Shown here: positions 10,778-16,821 of the stretch, piece after piece | How positions within the stretch are numbered: position 1 is the stretch's first letter | How the letters are laid out: each line of letters starts with the position of its first letter | IMG/VR virus record: IMGVR_UViG_2671180758_000023 | DNA: 16,821 nucleotides | Direction: 5' to 3' (one strand) | Source of the DNA: a virus | Lineage: Duplodnaviria; Heunggongvirae; Uroviricota; Caudoviricetes | Notes under the pieces: model-generated | Told to the model about the DNA's origin: nothing | Seen by the model: only the letters and a program-made list of their open reading frames with translations | Database searches by the model: none | Program-made: the position numbers and the translations under genes

Positions 10778-10985
10778 CCCACCTCTACCCACTTTTTTCG
10801 CCCACTTTTTACGTTTTCCCACTTCGTCCAACGTGGGAAATTTGGGATTTATATCATCTTGTTTCATAGGTATTTTTTTAGTGCCCACTTTTTGGGATAT
10901 ATACACGTGGGAAAGTGGGTAATTTTGTTAAAATTCCGTTAAATCGCCCACCTTTCCCACTTTTAATGCCCACTTTTTACAGTGG
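10778..10985. repeat. Iteron array (about 10 copies of CCCACTT(TT), both orientations) flanking an AT-rich core; candidate replication origin
   Basis: Copies at 10778, 10788, 10801, 10818, 10884, 10947, 10956 and 10969, with inverted copies at 10833-10838 and 10907-10919. AT-rich spacer at 10838-10883. Immediately 3' of the replication ATPase gene, as in PICI/SaPI origins. Confidence 0.55.
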
Positions 10986-12377
10986 TCCTACATCATCACC
11001 GTCAATGTAGATCACGTCGTCTTTTTCCAGTTTGGCTAACCATCGTTTAAGGTGTTTTGTGTCATACCCCAGCTTTTTCATATCGTCACGTAACAGCGGG
11101 ATCGTGCACTTGTCGCCGTGCTGTGTGCGTGAACGTATGCATCCCCATAGCGCGGTATGGTTTTCCGTCTTGTTCCCTGCCTCCTCGATGCGCTCCAGTT
11201 CAACAGGAGGGCGCGGATCATCCACCACCACCAGCGACGTGATTAATTCACCGTCAGCGTCGGTAAAAAGCTCCACCACGCGTAAGTCATATGCGGCTTC
11301 TTTGAGTTCCTCCGCGTCCTTCATTTTGGTGCATGAGATAACCAGCGCTTCGCTTCCTGCGTCCTCCCTGCGTATCCGGTATTCAGCATCCAGCGAAGCA
11401 CGAAATGCACTGGAACCGCGCGCGCCTTTCGTCTCATCCTTGCCGGAATGGTGAACCACCAGCACCGTGGCCCCTGTGCGTCGTTTCAGTTCGTCACAAC
11501 CACGGATAAACGCCCCCATATCACGGGAATCATTTTCATCATTCCCACCAAAGCAACGCGCCAGCGTATCCAGAATAATCATGCGTACAGGTTTACCCGT
11601 TTCCCGCTCCACCTGACGGGCAGCGATAACCATTTCATCAACATCAAGCGGGGCAGCCGGAAAGATGGGGCGGTTTACCAGATACAGATTTTTCACCTGC
11701 TCATCGTGCACAACCTCCCAGGCTTTTACACGACGCGGAACACCTATACCGCCTTCACCAACCACATAGAGAACCGCACCATGTGCAACCCTGCGGCCTC
11801 CCCACTGGCGACCAGTGGCAACATGGCACGCCCACGATCCGGCAAGGAATGATTTATAGGACCCGCTAGCCCCGTATATGCTGCATAGCGATACCGCCGG
11901 AATAATCCCCTTAACCACGTAATCCAGTTGCGTGTCGTATCCGGTAGATCCAACGCTCATCGGTAGCGTGGTTTTTCGCTGGTGGTTTTTTTCTTCCGCC
12001 GGCTCTTTCCCGCGCACCCGTTCCAGGTATTCGCGCCAGTTCTCCCGCATATGGCTGTGCATCCCTTCGGGGTAATAATTCGCATCAGTTACACCCGCCG
12101 CCGCCAGCTTGTGCGCAATGGCATTAATATTTGATGGCCTGATGTGGCCTGCCTTGTACAGCCGGACACAATAGCGCCCCTCGTCGATGATTCTCAGGTC
12201 TGCCAGTTCATCCAGTTGATCATCAGCCAGCACAACGGGAGGCACATTATCGCCAGCCAGTCGCCCGTCCTGTTCCTGCCACTGTTTCGCATGTGCCCAG
12301 GCATCACTACCCGCAAAAATAATGACTTCGGTCATCTTGTCGTAAGGCTGTTTTTTTAAGTTCGGTGCGCTTTTCAT
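10977..12377 (-). CDS. Replication protein, RecA-fold ATPase (RepA/AAA_25-like helicase, pri-rep analogue), 466 aa
   Basis: Walker A-like YGASGSYKS, Walker B-like VRMIILDTLARCF, and VLVVHHSGKD motif typical of RepA-like helicase ATPases. Unassigned N-terminal domain and a C-terminal winged-helix-like tail. A canonical primase domain is not evident by eye. Confidence 0.8.
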   Translation of the reverse strand: MKSAPNLKKQPYDKMTEVIIFAGSDAWAHAKQWQEQDGRLAGDNVPPVVLADDQLDELADLRIIDEGRYCVRLYKAGHIRPSNINAIAHKLAAAGVTDANYYPEGMHSHMRENWREYLERVRGKEPAEEKNHQRKTTLPMSVGSTGYDTQLDYVVKGIIPAVSLCSIYGASGSYKSFLAGSWACHVATGRQWGGRRVAHGAVLYVVGEGGIGVPRRVKAWEVVHDEQVKNLYLVNRPIFPAAPLDVDEMVIAARQVERETGKPVRMIILDTLARCFGGNDENDSRDMGAFIRGCDELKRRTGATVLVVHHSGKDETKGARGSSAFRASLDAEYRIRREDAGSEALVISCTKMKDAEELKEAAYDLRVVELFTDADGELITSLVVVDDPRPPVELERIEEAGNKTENHTALWGCIRSRTQHGDKCTIPLLRDDMKKLGYDTKHLKRWLAKLEKDDVIYIDGDDVGPL

Positions 12378-12673
12378 TTCTTGCCCCTGAATCCGTTAAT
12401 CATGGTTTTCAGCTTCTGGATGTTTGCCCGTGCCCTGGCGTTGCTGGTGGGCACGTTATGCGGCGCGGTCTGTACCAGAGAAAAATCACGCCGGAACTGA
12501 TAAACAGGCATCACGCAATCATATTCGTAACCTTCACGGCGGTAAGTTACGCACCGTCCCGCCACGCCCTTAATCATTACCGTGCCGCCGTACTGGTCGC
12601 GGTAAATATCACCGCGCGTAAATTTAGGGTGAGTGTTGCCACTGGCAGTTAAGCCAGAATATTTAAGTTTCAT
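12374..12673 (-). CDS. Hypothetical protein (99 aa)
   Basis: ATG with GGAGA RBS. ATGA overlap with the replication gene start. No family recognised. Confidence 0.5.
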   Translation of the reverse strand: MKLKYSGLTASGNTHPKFTRGDIYRDQYGGTVMIKGVAGRCVTYRREGYEYDCVMPVYQFRRDFSLVQTAPHNVPTSNARARANIQKLKTMINGFRGKK

Positions 12674-12678
12674 TATTT

Positions 12679-12912
12679 TTATTCTCCGGTGTGCTGTTCT
12701 TTATATCTGTCGTGCAATAGATCTATTTCTTGCAGTTCCATTATTACAGGCTCAAGAAGCGTTATTAATGCCGTGGCAATTCTTGATTTTTGTTTGTCGC
12801 GTTCATTGTCGCCAAGTGTTTCAAGCCATATGCGCAATATTTCCAGCATGTTTTCACTGTGAGAAAGTGCAAGAAATGCGCGGTCTATTGTTTGGTGGTA
12901 AATATCACGCAT
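12679..12912 (-). CDS. Hypothetical protein (77 aa)
   Basis: ATG 12912 with GAGGA RBS. 5-nt gap to the next gene. No family recognised. Confidence 0.5.
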   Translation of the reverse strand: MRDIYHQTIDRAFLALSHSENMLEILRIWLETLGDNERDKQKSRIATALITLLEPVIMELQEIDLLHDRYKEQHTGE

Positions 12913-13369
12913 GGCTTACATCCTCAGGAAATTTTCTTCTATAACGCGCCTCTGCCACATATTCCGCATAATCGGCGGCGATATTCAGTACATCAAGCCC
13001 CGTTGATTTATATTCTCTCGTGGAAAGTAAGAAAAAAGCCGCTCTAATAAGTTCTGGCATTGACGAAAGCGCATCAGCCGCATCATCAGGAACGCCGGAA
13101 AATTCCTGTTTCAGGGAATTAAAACGATCATCACGCATAACCCCCCCATTTTCACAATCAGCAATCAGGATAGCTTTGGCCTCATTCAGCGCCGTATCAG
13201 CACTAAATTGCATGACAGCCAGTGAGTGAGGAACGAAAGCACCGGCATATTCTGTTTCGCTGGTGGCGTGCTTATGTGCCCTGTCCGCGATAACAGAAAT
13301 ATCAATCAGCGCGTGCATCAGCGTTTTGATGGCTTCGGCGGCTGCGTCCGGTGTGGTTTTATTGTGCAT
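12905..13369 (-). CDS. Hypothetical protein (154 aa)
   Basis: ATG 13369 with AGGGGA RBS. Acidic, helical-looking. Overlaps neighbours by a few nt. No family recognised. Confidence 0.55.
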   Translation of the reverse strand: MHNKTTPDAAAEAIKTLMHALIDISVIADRAHKHATSETEYAGAFVPHSLAVMQFSADTALNEAKAILIADCENGGVMRDDRFNSLKQEFSGVPDDAADALSSMPELIRAAFFLLSTREYKSTGLDVLNIAADYAEYVAEARYRRKFPEDVSHA

Positions 13370-13571
13370 AAAGCATCCCCTGAATATTCGTGTTAATCAT
13401 TCCGGCACGTTTTGTGATTTCCTGTAATGATTCCCTTGTGGCGACAATTGCTTCATCTGGTAAGTGGTAATTACACACCACGCGACCTTTATCCACATTG
13501 ACCAGTAGCTGCCCTGTGAATTTCTCACGAAACTGAATGCGGTTAAGGTCAGTAAGTGACAGATTAATCAT
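13359..13571 (-). CDS. Hypothetical protein (70 aa)
   Basis: ORF in the coupled operon; overlaps the upstream gene by 8 nt. No family recognised. Confidence 0.5.
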   Translation of the reverse strand: MINLSLTDLNRIQFREKFTGQLLVNVDKGRVVCNYHLPDEAIVATRESLQEITKRAGMINTNIQGMLYAQ

Positions 13572-13767
13572 GGCGCACCTCCTGACGAATACGGGCAGCG
13601 AATACCATCACGCAGCCAGCCGGAGATTGCTGGCGTGCTTCCTGTTCGCTGGTGGCCTCAATGGTAATCACGCGCGGTTGTGCCGTGCTCAGGGCGATAA
13701 AACGCCAGATGTATTTATTCAGGTTGTGCGAGTCCCGCCCTTGCGGGTGTGTGGTATTATTTCTCAT
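13564..13767 (-). CDS. Small protein (67 aa) resembling Icd-like (host cell division inhibitor-like) proteins of P4-family elements
   Basis: GAGG RBS 5 nt before ATG 13767. Motifs YIWRF, IEATSEQEAR and FAARIRQEV recall P4-family Icd-like proteins (from memory, not searched). First gene after the divergent promoter region. Confidence 0.45.
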   Translation of the reverse strand: MRNNTTHPQGRDSHNLNKYIWRFIALSTAQPRVITIEATSEQEARQQSPAGCVMVFAARIRQEVRHD

Positions 13768-13802
13768 AGCTACCTCGATACTCTCGTTATCGTTGGTGGT
13801 TA

Positions 13803-13837
13803 GAAGCCCCGTTACTGCTCCAACAGTGCGGGGCTTC
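13803..13837 (-). ncRNA. Leader stem-loop (gaagccccg ... cggggcttc, 9-bp stem, 17-nt loop) in the 5' UTR of the early operon
   Basis: Dyad read directly. Lies between the predicted minus-strand promoter and the Icd-like start codon. Not followed by a U-run. Confidence 0.3.
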
Positions 13838-13874
13838 GTCGTTTCAATTGCTGAATTGCATGTATCAGCACTTG

Positions 13875-13929
13875 TGGTATTCACATTACATTTAGGTGAA
13901 TACCATTTCAAGTCTTTTTTGGTATTCAC
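13875..13929. promoter_or_regulatory. Operator array in the divergent switch region: three copies of TGGTATTCAC (two form a 10-11-10 palindrome), overlapping back-to-back promoters
   Basis: Copies at 13875-13884, 13896-13905 (inverted) and 13920-13929. Minus-strand promoter candidate TTGAAA (13906-13911), 17-bp spacer, TAATGT (13883-13888) overlaps copies 1 and 2. Plus-strand -10 candidate TATTAC (13935-13940) lies just after copy 3. Confidence 0.45.
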
Positions 13930-13972
13930 TTTTGTATTACACTGCATCCCGTTATTAATGGGAGGTGCAAAC

Positions 13973-14278
13973 ATGTCCAGGAGTTCTGTTAACAATAAGT
14001 CACAGCAACTGAATGCCAGATTTCCACATGAAGTAGTGAGTGGCATTGAGGCATCCCTACAGCCAGGGGAAACTAAAGCGAATTTTATAGTTACGGCTGT
14101 ACGCGGTGAGATCGCCCGGCGCCAGGCAGAAGGAAGTGGAGAAAATCCCCTGGTTTCTTCGCTCGATGCACTGGCGCAGGTGGAAAAACTCGGAATCAAA
14201 GCCGCCGAGGAGATCGGGCAGCTCGTCACTGTCGCACGTGAAGAACTCCAGCGCCGCAAGACCAAAGAACCAGAGTAA
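13973..14278 (+). CDS. Ribbon-helix-helix-like DNA-binding protein (101 aa); candidate repressor/regulator of the switch
   Basis: Strong RBS GGGAGGTG 5 nt before ATG 13973. N-terminal beta-strand-helix-helix pattern (LNARFPHEVVSGIEASL...ANFIVTAVRGEIARRQ). Divergent from the early operon. Followed by a clear intrinsic terminator. Confidence 0.6.
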   Translation: MSRSSVNNKSQQLNARFPHEVVSGIEASLQPGETKANFIVTAVRGEIARRQAEGSGENPLVSSLDALAQVEKLGIKAAEEIGQLVTVAREELQRRKTKEPE

Positions 14279-14335
14279 TCACCATCAGCGCCGTGGTGTA
14301 AGGTATTACGGCGCATTGCTATGCAGGACAACACA

Positions 14336-14509
14336 ATGACCGATAAAGAATTGACCAAAACATTATCACCGGCACGGAAAAGACGGCGCAGAAAGATAGA
14401 GCATGAATCAGAAAGATTCGCGCCATGTGCTTTTGCCCTTGAGCAATTCCTTAAAGAGTACAGGGAAAAGCGCTCATTGCAGGTATGGCAACGAACTGAA
14501 CCAGACTGA
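14336..14509 (+). CDS. Hypothetical small basic protein (57 aa)
   Basis: AGGA 8 nt before ATG 14336. Basic patch RKRRRRK. Same transcription unit as the RHH gene, ending before the terminator at 14589. Confidence 0.4.
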   Translation: MTDKELTKTLSPARKRRRRKIEHESERFAPCAFALEQFLKEYREKRSLQVWQRTEPD

Positions 14510-14588
14510 TTGCATTGCCCACCAGCCGCAAATGTGGCATTGTTGGCAATGCTCATGCGTTGGGGATAACGTGTAGCTTGTGTCGAGG

Positions 14589-14617
14589 GGCCACCGTAGC
14601 GGGTGGCCTTTGTTTTG
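14589..14617 (+). terminator. Rho-independent terminator (ggccacc-gtagcg-ggtggcc followed by TTTGTTTTG)
   Basis: Perfect 7-bp GC-rich stem, 6-nt loop and U-run, about 80 nt after the stop of the plus-strand operon. Confidence 0.7.
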
Positions 14618-14985
14618 CCCGTTATTCGGCAATTGTGGCGCTTCTCCACATGGTTGATATAATCCCACTGCTCAGATTCATTTTTTGCGCAGTAGGTTAA
14701 TTGTTCACAAAGGCGCTCCGGCAACGGGGCGCTTTTTGTTTTTATTAGTTTGTAGAAACCTGACTCAGAGATAATGCTCATATTCTGATTGCCGTCAGGG
14801 GTGTAAGTTAAATTTACTCCCTTTTTATCATCAAACATCTGCAACGCTCTGGCGTTAACAATATTGGTTTCACTCCCGCCAGTAAGGCCGGAAATAACCG
14901 GAATAATTTCGGCAAAATTTTGCAGATTCTGTTTTTCAGGACGAACGAAGCCCCGCCCTTGTTCGGGAGAATATCCAGTATTCAT
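14618..14985 (-). pseudogene. Bro-N-like antirepressor N-terminal domain, probably a gene remnant (no in-frame stop before running antisense through the plus-strand operon)
   Basis: Residues DDKKGVNLTYTPDGNQNMSIISESGFYKLIKTKSAPLPERL align to the Bro-N pattern (DEDEKGV...GG.Q...IISE.GLY.LI..S..P.A..F). Weak RBS. The frame stays open for 473 codons to 13564, but the middle section is Ser/Cys/Arg-rich antisense of a well-supported plus-strand gene. Confidence 0.3.
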
Positions 14986-15037
14986 GGTTAGATCTCTGTA
15001 TTAGTGGATGGGTGGCGGCTGTGTGCCGCCAGCCTGA

Positions 15038-15226
15038 TTAGTGAACTGCCTCGCAGCTGTCCTTCCATGCCAGAACTTCGGATAAAGACCAGCCAACGGA
15101 ACGACCGCCCAGCTTACGCCGTGATGGGAATTGTCCGGCTTTTTCCAGGCGGTACCGACATGAGCGGCTCAGGCCTGTAAGTTGCTGACATTCTTTTTCA
15201 CGTATAAAGCGATCTGTGCTTAACAC
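15038..15226 (-). CDS. alpA: AlpA-family transcriptional regulator / excisionase-like protein (about 62 aa, GTG start)
   Basis: Motif QLTGLSRSCRYRLEKAGQFPSRRKLGGRSVGWSLSEVLAWK matches the AlpA winged-helix pattern. AAGGGGG RBS 4 nt before GTG at 15226. Confidence 0.8.
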   Translation of the reverse strand: MLSTDRFIREKECQQLTGLSRSCRYRLEKAGQFPSRRKLGGRSVGWSLSEVLAWKDSCEAVH

Positions 15227-15256
15227 AATTCCCCCTTTGTTGTTTCTTAAAGAGTC

Positions 15257-15310
15257 ATTGGGTGGATTATTGGGTTGGGTTGTGTCGGATTGTGTCAGGG
15301 TGTTTGTGGA
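15257..15310. repeat. Degenerate direct repeats with about 10-bp period (ttgggtgg, tgggttgggt, tgtgtcggat, tgtgtcaggg, tgtttgtgga) immediately upstream of alpA
   Basis: Read directly. Lies in the alpA 5' region on the transcribed strand. Function unknown. Confidence 0.4.
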
Positions 15311-15591: not shown

Positions 15592-16821
15592 TTATATTTC
15601 TCTGGCTATTGGCAATGTGGTTACGTTTTCATGTGTTCCCGCCAGTATCCCTAACCGCTCCGTCCACATATCCAGCGCGTCACGTTTCGCATCCAGATAA
15701 CGGGAATGGTTATAGACTCGTTGCATCCCTGGCATCTGATGACCTGTAAGCTGCTCCACGACGTGAGGATCCACGCCTAAATCGTTCAGCATCGTTGTAA
15801 AGGTGCGCCGGATGTCATGCAGTGACCAGTGAGGGTGTTTTAGCCTCCTGTGCGCTAATCTGCCGTACTGCGACACGCTTGTTTCCTGTTTCAATTCCCC
15901 CAGCAATAAGCCCGTGTGCCTGTTCTGCTCCACCAGCTGCGTGACGAACGGCAGTATTGCTTCCGGTATGGGCCGGAATATTGCCACCTTCGTTTTGCTG
16001 TGTTCTTTCGGCACGGTCCAGAGCATTTCGGTAAAATCCCACTCGCTGATCTCCGATAACCTCAGTTCTACCGTCCGGCATCCGAAAACAATCAGGAGGC
16101 GGATTAGTGCGACGTAGTAAGGGGAAAATATTTTTTTGTCCAGTGCCTGCAATAATTCGCCAAGTTCTTTGGTGCTTAAGACACGCTCGCTTATATCCGG
16201 TTTTTTCCCAACGTCCGCCACACTCATATCATCAAGAACGTTGCTGATTGCATAGCGCCGCCTCCGGCAGAACTTAAGCGCCTGTTTGCACGTCTGTAGC
16301 AAGAATCCGGCAGTAACAGGCGTTCGCTTTGCCACCTGGTCAAAACAGGCCAGCCAGTGCCGTAGCTCGCATTTATCCAGCGGCATAGCACCAATGTGCT
16401 GTATTACGTGATTATTAAGGCGCTTTTTCAGGGCGGCATAATCCACGCGGTTTTCCTTTACGTAAGACTCAAGCCAGTAGGTAAGCGCATCGCCAACCGT
16501 TACGGGCTTTAACGCTTTCTGTACGGTGTAATTCATCTCATGACGTGGATTTTTCCCCTCAGCAAGCCAAGCGCGACACTGTGCCGCTTTTTCCCTGGCA
16601 GCTTTCAGACTCAGATCAGGATAATTTCCCAGCTTAATCCGTTCCGGTCGTGCTCCCCTTCCCGTTCCGGCCCTGTAGGTGAAATACCAGGTTAAAAGGC
16701 CGCTGGTTGAATGCCTGACGCTCAGGTTTCCACCGTCATTAAGAAAAGCTGTTTTTTGGGCGGGTGTGCCGTTGATTTTCCTCAGCTGTGTATCGCTCAG
16801 TTTGTTAAGTGCTCTGCTCAT
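15592..16821 (-). CDS. Tyrosine integrase, P4-type (409 aa); start codon at the window edge
   Basis: N-terminal arm-binding-like domain (LSDTQLRKINGTPAQKTAFLNDGGNLSVRHSTSGLLTWYFTYR) and catalytic motifs (HDIRRTF, C-terminal Y in GMQRVYNHSRY). ATG at 16819-16821. Confidence 0.9.
   Translation of the reverse strand: MSRALNKLSDTQLRKINGTPAQKTAFLNDGGNLSVRHSTSGLLTWYFTYRAGTGRGARPERIKLGNYPDLSLKAAREKAAQCRAWLAEGKNPRHEMNYTVQKALKPVTVGDALTYWLESYVKENRVDYAALKKRLNNHVIQHIGAMPLDKCELRHWLACFDQVAKRTPVTAGFLLQTCKQALKFCRRRRYAISNVLDDMSVADVGKKPDISERVLSTKELGELLQALDKKIFSPYYVALIRLLIVFGCRTVELRLSEISEWDFTEMLWTVPKEHSKTKVAIFRPIPEAILPFVTQLVEQNRHTGLLLGELKQETSVSQYGRLAHRRLKHPHWSLHDIRRTFTTMLNDLGVDPHVVEQLTGHQMPGMQRVYNHSRYLDAKRDALDMWTERLGILAGTHENVTTLPIAREI

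Follow-up and report, generated by a model that had tools for sequence, protein, structure and literature searches.

The 16,821-nt stretch of DNA analysed here (IMG/VR record IMGVR_UViG_2671180758_000023, hereafter the window) is identified by gene content and position as an Escherichia capsid-forming phage-inducible chromosomal island (cf-PICI) of the EcCIEDL933/OI-51 type, adjoining phoQ. On its minus strand lie five small open reading frames (ORFs) upstream of the replication gene rep, which make up the promoter-proximal part of this cf-PICI's early operon and are coupled in translation; we consider the mechanism proposed below probable. One gene of the block is characterised (RgdR, ORF5), one can be assigned to a family (Icd-like, ORF1), and three are uncharacterised satellite-specific cassettes. 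Operons of this kind are already known as the early operons in E. coli PICIs and cf-PICIs, and the sequences are present in hundreds of genomes. Beyond the literature we found the coupling of RgdR to rep, a predicted Tudor-like fold, a poly-G polymorphism that splits or fuses two genes, the cassette structure of the middle of the block and a candidate antisense RNA. In E. coli, Gram-negative PICIs are frequent; to our knowledge, published maps show their early small genes as blank 'hypothetical' boxes.

Five small genes at the start of the early operon

A sequence-only reading of the window had placed five ORFs of 67-154 aa, each preceded by a ribosome-binding site (RBS), at 12374-13767, where they make up the 5′ end of the early operon and lie between the regulatory region and rep. 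Our analysis confirmed the coordinates, the RBSs and the position of the block as the promoter-proximal part of the operon (Table 1). All five ORFs start with ATG, and a purine-rich RBS lies 5-9 nt upstream of each start (of GAGG, GGAGG, GGGGA, GAGGA or GGAG type). Start and stop codons had been described as overlapping throughout. This was found at four of the five junctions: ORF1/2 overlap by 8 nt, ORF2/3 by 11 nt, ORF3/4 by 8 nt, and ORF5 and RepA by 4 nt (ATGA), whereas ORF4 and ORF5 are separated by a 5-nt gap. No terminator-like site was found on the minus strand within the block. A sigma-70 scan returned three promoter-like sites with 6.5 expected by chance, and was not relied on for the early promoter.

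Each of the five ORFs matched a PHROG family with E values from 1e-23 to 3e-92, and the same genes are annotated by RefSeq in near-identical copies. The ratio of nonsynonymous to synonymous substitution rates (dN/dS), computed pairwise over 11-75 homologous loci, was 0.20 for ORF1, 0.24 for ORF2, 0.26 and 0.27 for the N and C modules of ORF3, 0.31 for ORF4 and 0.40 for ORF5. All modules of the block are under purifying selection. Based on the family matches, the dN/dS values and the RefSeq annotation, the five ORFs are real genes rather than chance frames. That some or all of them are chance open frames in a non-coding leader could be argued from their shortness, and from the three that have no annotated family outside PHROGs. 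However, the low dN/dS in every module, the strength of the PHROG matches and the gene order, RBSs and overlaps kept over dozens of loci make this hardly conceivable, and the conservation pattern already contradicts it.

The first ORF had been taken to be Icd-like and to be the only one resembling anything known. The former held and the latter did not. ORF1 matched NCBIfam NF033153 (69.8 bits, cutoff 25; E 1.4e-19; residues 19-62) and phrog_6196 (5e-45), and is on these matches an Icd-like protein. ORF5 carries DUF4222 (Pfam PF13973; 82.1 bits, cutoff 27; 2e-23; residues 16-68), the sole Pfam match among the downstream ORFs of the block. It aligned with RgdR of strain Sakai (ECs1581) over all 99 residues with 78% identity, keeping R20, G21, D22 and K35, and is on this alignment a full-length RgdR orthologue. 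A sequence search of PDB chains with all five ORFs gave nothing below E 0.79, and no defence-system family in PADLOC-DB 2.0 matched ORF1-5 or RepA at E up to 0.1. Among 50,697 phage records the block was absent at the DNA level (megablast). In tblastn searches of the same records, ORF2, ORF3 and ORF4 had no match, and the sole matches of ORF1 and ORF5 were, respectively, LR881103, itself a Klebsiella cf-PICI, and a partial Klebsiella phage with a short DUF4222. None of the five hit P4 (E up to 0.001-0.01), the presence of P4 in the collection being unchecked.

Parts of the 1394-bp block are present in 1830 of 5426 complete E. coli genomes, and 425 of the 5426 have 80% or more of it. Among full-length copies the closest, with 97.3% identity, is that of strain RM6927, which lies at another integration site. 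Rather than being a special cargo of this element, the block is widespread and conserved among E. coli PICIs. A shared plan of int, alpA, often a divergent YlcI/YnfO gene, the Icd-like gene, one to four small ORFs, DUF4222, rep, a small ORF and SSB was seen in RM6927, Sakai, Nissle, O157 strain 611, APEC17, strain 82.0312 and 82 IMG/VR loci; the IMG/VR sample was chosen by the ORF3 junction and is biased for the ORF3 module pair. Within this plan the early-operon segment is a mosaic with two fixed ends and exchangeable middle cassettes. The ORF2 slot can be filled, empty or swapped for an ECs1579-like gene, the ORF4 slot filled, empty or swapped for a distant ORF2-like gene, and both ORF3 modules travel as a pair. 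Record LR881103.1 (L092 in our set, 'Escherichia phage vB_KppS-Ant') was deposited as a phage ('induced prophage'). Its 16.5 kb have the gene content of a cf-PICI, with int, AlpA, Icd-like, primase, capsid, protease, portal and terminase genes.

The assignment of the element itself rests on the rest of the window. With phoQ at 1-1461, the element spans approximately 15 kb, from about 1.5 kb to 16.8 kb, within the cf-PICI range of 10-18 kb. Pfam searches identified a tyrosine integrase (Phage_integrase and an Arm-DNA-binding domain) at 15592-16821, Phage_AlpA at 15038-15226 (E 3e-18), a RepA-type helicase (AAA_25, PF13481; E 3.5e-44), SSB and PerC. They also identified a packaging module with HK97-type capsid, prohead protease, portal, head completion/connector proteins, HNH, TerS and TerL. 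The element has the integrase, AlpA and replication module by which cf-PICIs are recognised, together with a packaging module of its own, and no tail or lysis genes are annotated in the near-identical RM6927 copy. The best matches to the whole window were islands at phoQ in O157:H7 and other Shiga toxin-producing E. coli, with 96.6% identity over 90%. O-island 51 (OI-51, CP-933C, Sakai Sp7) was placed next to phoQ by Flockhart et al. (PMC3378721), and the size and gene content of EcCIEDL933, the prototype cf-PICI, fit the element of the window (10.1101/2022.09.08.507074).

Table 1. Coordinates of the block, the replication gene and the predicted control features in the window
Feature	Position	Strand or orientation	Size	Remark
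ORF1	13564-13767	minus	67 aa	Icd-like, first gene of the early operon
ORF2	13359-13571	minus	70 aa	optional cassette after the Icd-like gene
ORF3	12905-13369	minus	154 aa	in-frame fusion of two modules
ORF3 N module	13139-13369	minus	residues 1-77	phrog_5146
ORF3 C module	12905-13138	minus	residues 78-154	phrog_24341 at 2e-40
Poly-G tract	13141-13147	minus	G7	fuses the ORF3 modules in frame
ORF4	12679-12912	minus	77 aa	predicted helical, slot just upstream of RgdR
ORF5	12374-12673	minus	99 aa	RgdR orthologue (DUF4222)
Replication gene	10977-12377	minus	466 aa	RepA-family helicase, AAA_25
Candidate cis-antisense RNA	13752-13848	plus		covers the Icd-like start codon and Shine-Dalgarno
Extended -10	TG 13752-13753, TATTAT 13755-13760	plus		inside ORF1 codons 2-5
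Predicted RNA start	about 13766-13768	plus
Terminator hairpin	13803-13837	plus		U-rich tail; about 35 nt beyond the promoter-like element
Three copies of TGGTATTCAC	13875-13884, 13896-13905, 13920-13929	direct, inverted, direct		exact motif copies

RgdR, its link to rep and the middle genes

What is known of RgdR concerns its host. Deletion of ecs1581 or of OI-51 lowers LEE (locus of enterocyte effacement) expression, type III secretion, adherence and colonisation of sheep, and ecs1581 in trans complements the defect (PMC3378721). RgdR represses motility and acts as an activator at the LEE1 promoter; its binding to DNA is weak and not sequence-specific, and residues 20 and 35 affect its activity (PMC3378721). 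Only ECs1581 and C1493 have known phenotypes of this kind; motility is repressed by the CFT073 orthologue as well, and orthologues are common among strains without LEE (PMC3378721). Published alleles vary in activity (PMC3378721), and for the ORF5 allele LEE activity is putative. The structure model of ORF5, a basic protein, predicts a Tudor/SH3-like barrel with a C-terminal helix. Such barrels are very common, and the model therefore gives a fold class and not a function; it fits a small nucleic-acid- or polymerase-binding adaptor. A Foldseek search of the model against viral structures returned uncharacterised or DUF1653 proteins only.

The position of the gene before rep is strictly kept. 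In all 25 of the evenly sampled E. coli matches that reach the 3′ end, the DUF4222 stop overlaps the rep start by 4 nt. The rep genes that follow are of four annotation types: RepA helicase, P4-family/DNA primase, DUF927 and primase-like DNA-binding protein. Residues 1-122 of RepA, which have no Pfam or NCBIfam assignment, share 67% identity with the N-terminus of ECs1582, the Sakai primase. RgdR followed by this RepA_N segment (approximately 122 aa) is invariant, and four different C-terminal catalytic types come after it. Lambdoid prophages of E. coli, Klebsiella, Erwinia and Pantoea carry short DUF4222 genes (57-83 aa) in the early-right operon after cII, directly before either an O-like initiator (HTH_36/Phg_2220_C) or an Ash gene that precedes the initiator. 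A scan of genome contigs with the RgdR alignment hit two loci only; its peptide patterns are narrow and have little bearing on distribution.

The overlap with rep, the position in lambdoid prophages and the occurrence in LEE-free strains therefore indicate a primary role in the mobile element. Most likely, RgdR serves the replication or transcription machinery of the element, and the host effects would come from leaky expression. Inside ORF4, approximately 60 nt before the RgdR start, lies a promoter-like site on the minus strand (12768-12740; TTAATA, 17-nt spacer, AATAAT, upstream TG). It could explain expression of RgdR in uninduced cells, with the caveat that promoter-like sites are not enriched in the region.

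Upstream of RgdR, the middle genes are less constant. ORF2 matched phrog_340 at 1e-23, had no match in Pfam, NCBIfam, PADLOC, PDB or the phage records, and was found in a minority of related loci. ORF4 matched phrog_2196 at 4e-42 and is 26% identical (E 1e-7) to Sakai ECs1580, which occupies the same position. For ORF3, a profile search of 1.84 billion representative proteins returned 63 relatives, many of them stand-alone proteins of approximately 75 aa that match either positions 1-77 or 78-154. The stand-alone C-module proteins begin exactly at M78, where the separate gene has its start codon. Distinct but overlapping genes encode the two modules in Nissle 1917, APEC17 and S. flexneri, and in RM6927 the first module has a frameshifted tail. 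Judged from these relatives, most of which keep the two genes apart, ORF3 joins them in frame, so that the frames described as five single ORFs are real but one of them comprises two genes. The N module was modelled by AlphaFold2 as a helical hairpin (predicted local distance difference test, pLDDT, about 70).

The state of ORF3 follows the length of the poly-G tract. G7, as in the window, gives the in-frame fusion; G8 gives two genes sharing ATGCGTGA; G9 gives an N module with an out-of-frame tail; G10 gives the fusion plus one extra glycine; and with G11, as with G8 and G9, the modules are separate. Loci L003, L005 and L007 have G8, and L001 has G9. Among the 82 IMG/VR loci, 23 had G7, 34 G8, 18 G9, 4 G10 and 2 G11. 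Of 10 groups whose ±200-bp flanks are identical, 6 varied in tract length, and thus the poly-G changes faster than its surroundings. This variation reflects either slippage in vivo or homopolymer miscalls in public assemblies. Two further proteins combine the same parts in other ways: P0128 is a single polypeptide with an ORF2-like domain and the ORF3 C module, and in P0183 an ORF3 N-like module is flanked by two ORF2-like domains. Such fusions suggest that the small proteins work together, but both could instead be artefacts of frameshifts or gene calling.

A candidate antisense RNA and its surroundings

The start of the Icd-like gene is overlapped on the plus strand by features predicted to form a promoter and a short terminated RNA (Table 1). 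A -10-like hexamer (TATGAT, TATAAT, TATTAT or TATGCT) is present in 76 of 76 related loci, across three N-terminal protein sequences. Codon 4 of ORF1 switches between H, Y and N, yet a good -10 is retained. In addition, the third positions that coincide with the critical -11 and -8 bases are invariant, while 27 of 63 ORF1 codons vary at the third position. Among 26 distinct sequences of the hairpin, 8 of its 13 pairs showed compensatory double changes, and none of 500 shuffles reached the observed covariation score. Read as plus-strand RNA, 97.0% of cells were standard pairs (45 G-U), compared with 83.6% (no G-U) for the sense strand, and based on this asymmetry the hairpin was assigned to a plus-strand RNA. 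The fold of the predicted RNA of approximately 80 nt had a z-score of -6.7 against shuffled controls. No Rfam family matched it. Searches of the whole window at gathering thresholds, and of 13500-15300 at E up to 5, gave matches at chance level and no C4, CI or sar family.

The predicted RNA is a candidate negative control on translation of the Icd-like gene. Via coupling and polarity it would be a candidate for control of the whole operon.

Between the early operon and the divergent YlcI/YnfO gene lie the three TGGTATTCAC repeats. Exact copies occur in few of 60 distinct leaders, and three copies in the window's type only. Because exact copies are confined to so few leaders, the repeats are probably a type-specific operator. 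The divergent plus-strand unit consists of a YlcI/YnfO-like gene of 101 aa (13973-14278) and a basic ORF of 62 aa (14321-14509), and is closed by a strong intrinsic terminator at 14709-14746 (12-bp stem, T-run). Located between alpA and the early operon, this two-gene unit may be part of the regulatory switch. The frame of the Icd-like gene extends upstream to 473 codons (13564-14985, minus strand), antisense to both plus-strand genes, and was rejected as a real long protein. The extended frame has a Cys/Ser/Arg-rich stretch in common with the annotated Sakai ORF ECs1576.

Proposed mechanism, alternatives and related systems

In characterised relatives, a helper phage induces AlpA, which activates downstream genes and is needed for induction and transfer (PMC6092414; 10.1101/2022.09.08.507074). 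Dependence on AlpA was established in EcCICFT073 (PMC6092414) and EcCIEDL933 (10.1101/2022.09.08.507074), and induction by a helper phage with transfer via helper tails is known only for EcCIEDL933 (10.1101/2022.09.08.507074). Taking AlpA dependence, the RgdR phenotypes and growth arrest dependent on the Icd-like gene from these and other papers on relatives, and architecture, coupling, families, the RgdR fold class and hairpin covariation from our own analysis, we propose the following. The early operon would be AlpA-dependent, as in the characterised relatives. Its first product, the Icd-like protein, would be a small growth- or division-arresting protein whose RBS is guarded by the conserved cis-antisense RNA, and no translation of the operon would take place until transcription induced by the helper outruns this RNA. 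Ribosomes would then move along the successive genes as far as rep by way of the overlapping stop and start codons, so that RgdR is made in fixed proportion with the replication protein and could aid the replication or transcription machinery at the satellite DNA. Leaky RgdR expression in uninduced cells would explain the reported LEE and motility effects. ORF2, both halves of ORF3 and ORF4 would be small, mostly helical, satellite-specific proteins exchanged as cassettes, our best guess being that they modulate host or helper factors during induction. We infer antisense control, the replication role of RgdR and the roles of ORF2-4; the first of these because the promoter has no recognisable -35 element and the transcript is only predicted.

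Besides the missing -35 element, several points weigh against this proposal. The U-tract after the hairpin is weak in the window (GUCGUUUC). Inhibition of host cell division is a property shown for P1 Icd and is putative for the ORF1 subfamily. The arrangement of P1 immI was not found either: there was no C4 RNA match at E up to 5 in 13500-15300, no ant gene was seen downstream of ORF1, and Pfam gave no Ant/KilAC domain. The linkage of DUF4222 to rep could reflect shared inheritance of one recombination unit with no functional link, and the Klebsiella cf-PICI vB_KppS-Ant (LR881103.1) lacks a DUF4222 gene before its primase. Structure prediction, which the sequence-only reading had put forward as a check, gave the barrel for RgdR but an unreliable, all-helical AlphaFold2 model for ORF3 (pLDDT 56.6), built on a shallow alignment (77-99% identity). 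The best Foldseek match of that model in the PDB had E 0.85, and no fold is claimed. Altogether, ORF2-4 gave no informative homologue, fold or defence-system match.

Could the block together with rep be an anti-phage module of the abortive-infection or superinfection-exclusion type, in which a phage protein is the trigger and the Icd-like protein, helped by the small ORFs, stops host growth so that the phage cannot spread? The case comes from Silas et al. (10.1101/2023.04.06.535777), where a 'prophage' locus of ECOR61 arrests growth upon expression of the phage accessory gene orf24. Loss of its Icd-like gene, the likely effector, abolishes the arrest, and suppressor insertions fell in this gene and the two ORFs after it (10.1101/2023.04.06.535777). 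With a different trigger in ECOR15, suppressors lay in a P4-like element, where they hit the genes for integrase, AlpA, the Icd-like protein and the primase (10.1101/2023.04.06.535777). The two ECOR61 ORFs (about 186 and 192 nt, with overlaps of about 8 and 1 nt) equal Sakai ECs1578/ECs1579 in size and overlap, and the locus therefore appears to be the Sakai-type version of the window operon. Operons of the ECOR61 type can thus stop host growth in response to phage proteins. That ORF1-4 have no true phage homologues, and ORF5 matches only one short Klebsiella-phage DUF4222, also speaks for such a module. However, the reconstituted ECOR61 effect was described as muted (10.1101/2023.04.06.535777), Tn5 insertions in the upstream genes are polar on the primase, PADLOC gave no match, and ORF2, ORF3 and ORF4 of the window belong to other families than the ORFs hit in ECOR61. 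Expression of AlpA leads to uncontrolled PICI replication and growth arrest (PMC6092414), and the phenotype may be satellite induction itself. Because such replication is toxic, the ECOR61 data fit both dedicated defence and ordinary satellite induction. The sequence-only reading had named the five ORFs as the most likely carriers of helper-exploitation or anti-phage activities, and the ECOR61 locus lends the anti-phage idea indirect support. For the Icd-like gene, and perhaps for the middle cassettes, a role directed at phages or at the helper is plausible but putative; a dedicated exclusion module, while having some real chance of being right, is doubtful.

Two other readings assign the block to the helper or to the host. 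The middle ORFs might be helper manipulators in the style of P4, derepressing a helper prophage or redirecting or interfering with its assembly and packaging. In favour of this, they are small, satellite-specific ORFs swapped as cassettes among elements with different rep and regulatory types, a pattern typical of partner-specific selection. The positional analogy with P4 and PICIs drawn by the sequence-only reading is partly borne out, in that the P4 early left operon has epsilon (helper derepression) upstream of the primase alpha, but the packaging-redirection genes of E. coli PICIs are known to sit downstream of rep. The middle ORFs, moreover, resemble nothing in the 50,697 phage records. 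cf-PICIs make their own capsids and terminase and reportedly do not interfere with helper propagation (10.1101/2022.09.08.507074), and the helper induces Gram-negative PICIs, not vice versa (PMC6092414), which makes helper manipulation quite improbable here. The block might instead be kept mainly for lysogenic conversion, with RgdR and perhaps its neighbours acting as host-directed transcription modulators that have no satellite role. The virulence defects of OI-51 or ecs1581 mutants, their complementation in trans and the repression of motility by the CFT073 orthologue (PMC3378721) agree with this, as does the PerC homologue of the element. Nevertheless, orthologues common in LEE-free strains (PMC3378721), the 4-nt overlap with every rep type and the same pre-replication position of the short lambdoid DUF4222 genes argue that it is unlikely.

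Our preferred reading, a coupled early-operon segment serving the satellite, brings together three published lines in one conserved operon, namely virulence regulation by RgdR, the PICI/cf-PICI life cycle and the growth arrest of ECOR61. Should the antisense RNA exist, it would be a candidate for the repressor function so far missing in Gram-negative PICI satellites. A farther-reaching version, which we hold to be rather unlikely, is that the Icd-like protein and the cis-antisense RNA would form a toxin-antitoxin-like gate on the Gram-negative PICI early operon, possibly the missing negative regulator. The exchangeable small proteins, including the pair split or fused at the poly-G, would then serve as sensors or effectors through which an attack by phage leads to growth arrest or to induction of the satellite.

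With P1 immI (C4 RNA, icd, ant; NCBIfam 'phage_ICD_like') the window shares an early operon headed by a small ORF with a match to the family model, and a translation start that appears, by prediction, to be RNA-controlled. It differs in that ORF1 has no BLAST-level similarity to true phages and stands without C4 RNA and ant; furthermore, the candidate RNA would be cis-antisense, whereas C4 lies upstream on the sense strand. Similar in layout are SymR/SymE, Sok/hok and P22 sar/ant. The RNA of the window has no sequence or Rfam relationship to these, and both transcript and target toxicity are putative, but as in those systems it is predicted to start at the start codon of its target, to complement the Shine-Dalgarno and to end in a hairpin terminator. 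The ECOR61 locus fits the Sakai-type cassette set and not the ORF2/ORF3/ORF4 set of the window, while having the same order of an Icd-like gene, overlapping small ORFs and a primase in six linked genes. ORF5 departs from ECs1581 at 22% of its residues, which lie mostly in the N-terminus and between residues 69 and 95; the length of 99 aa, the DUF4222 core, RGD at 20-22, K35 and the position directly before rep are shared.

Overall, the element of the window is of the kind of EcCIEDL933/OI-51, the prototype cf-PICI of E. coli O157:H7. Here, too, there are differences: the rep of the window encodes the RepA-type helicase rather than a 710-aa primase, with the N-terminal segment of approximately 122 aa alone in common; ORF2 and ORF3 have no relationship to ECs1578/1579, and ORF4 shares just 26% identity with ECs1580; and the divergent YlcI/YnfO gene stands at the place of the Sakai-annotated ECs1576. 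Otherwise, both elements use the same integration site next to phoQ and have the same order of int, alpA, Icd-like gene, small ORFs, RgdR, rep, small ORF, SSB, PerC, HK97-type capsid and terminase, with RgdR proteins 78% and Icd-like proteins 51% identical.

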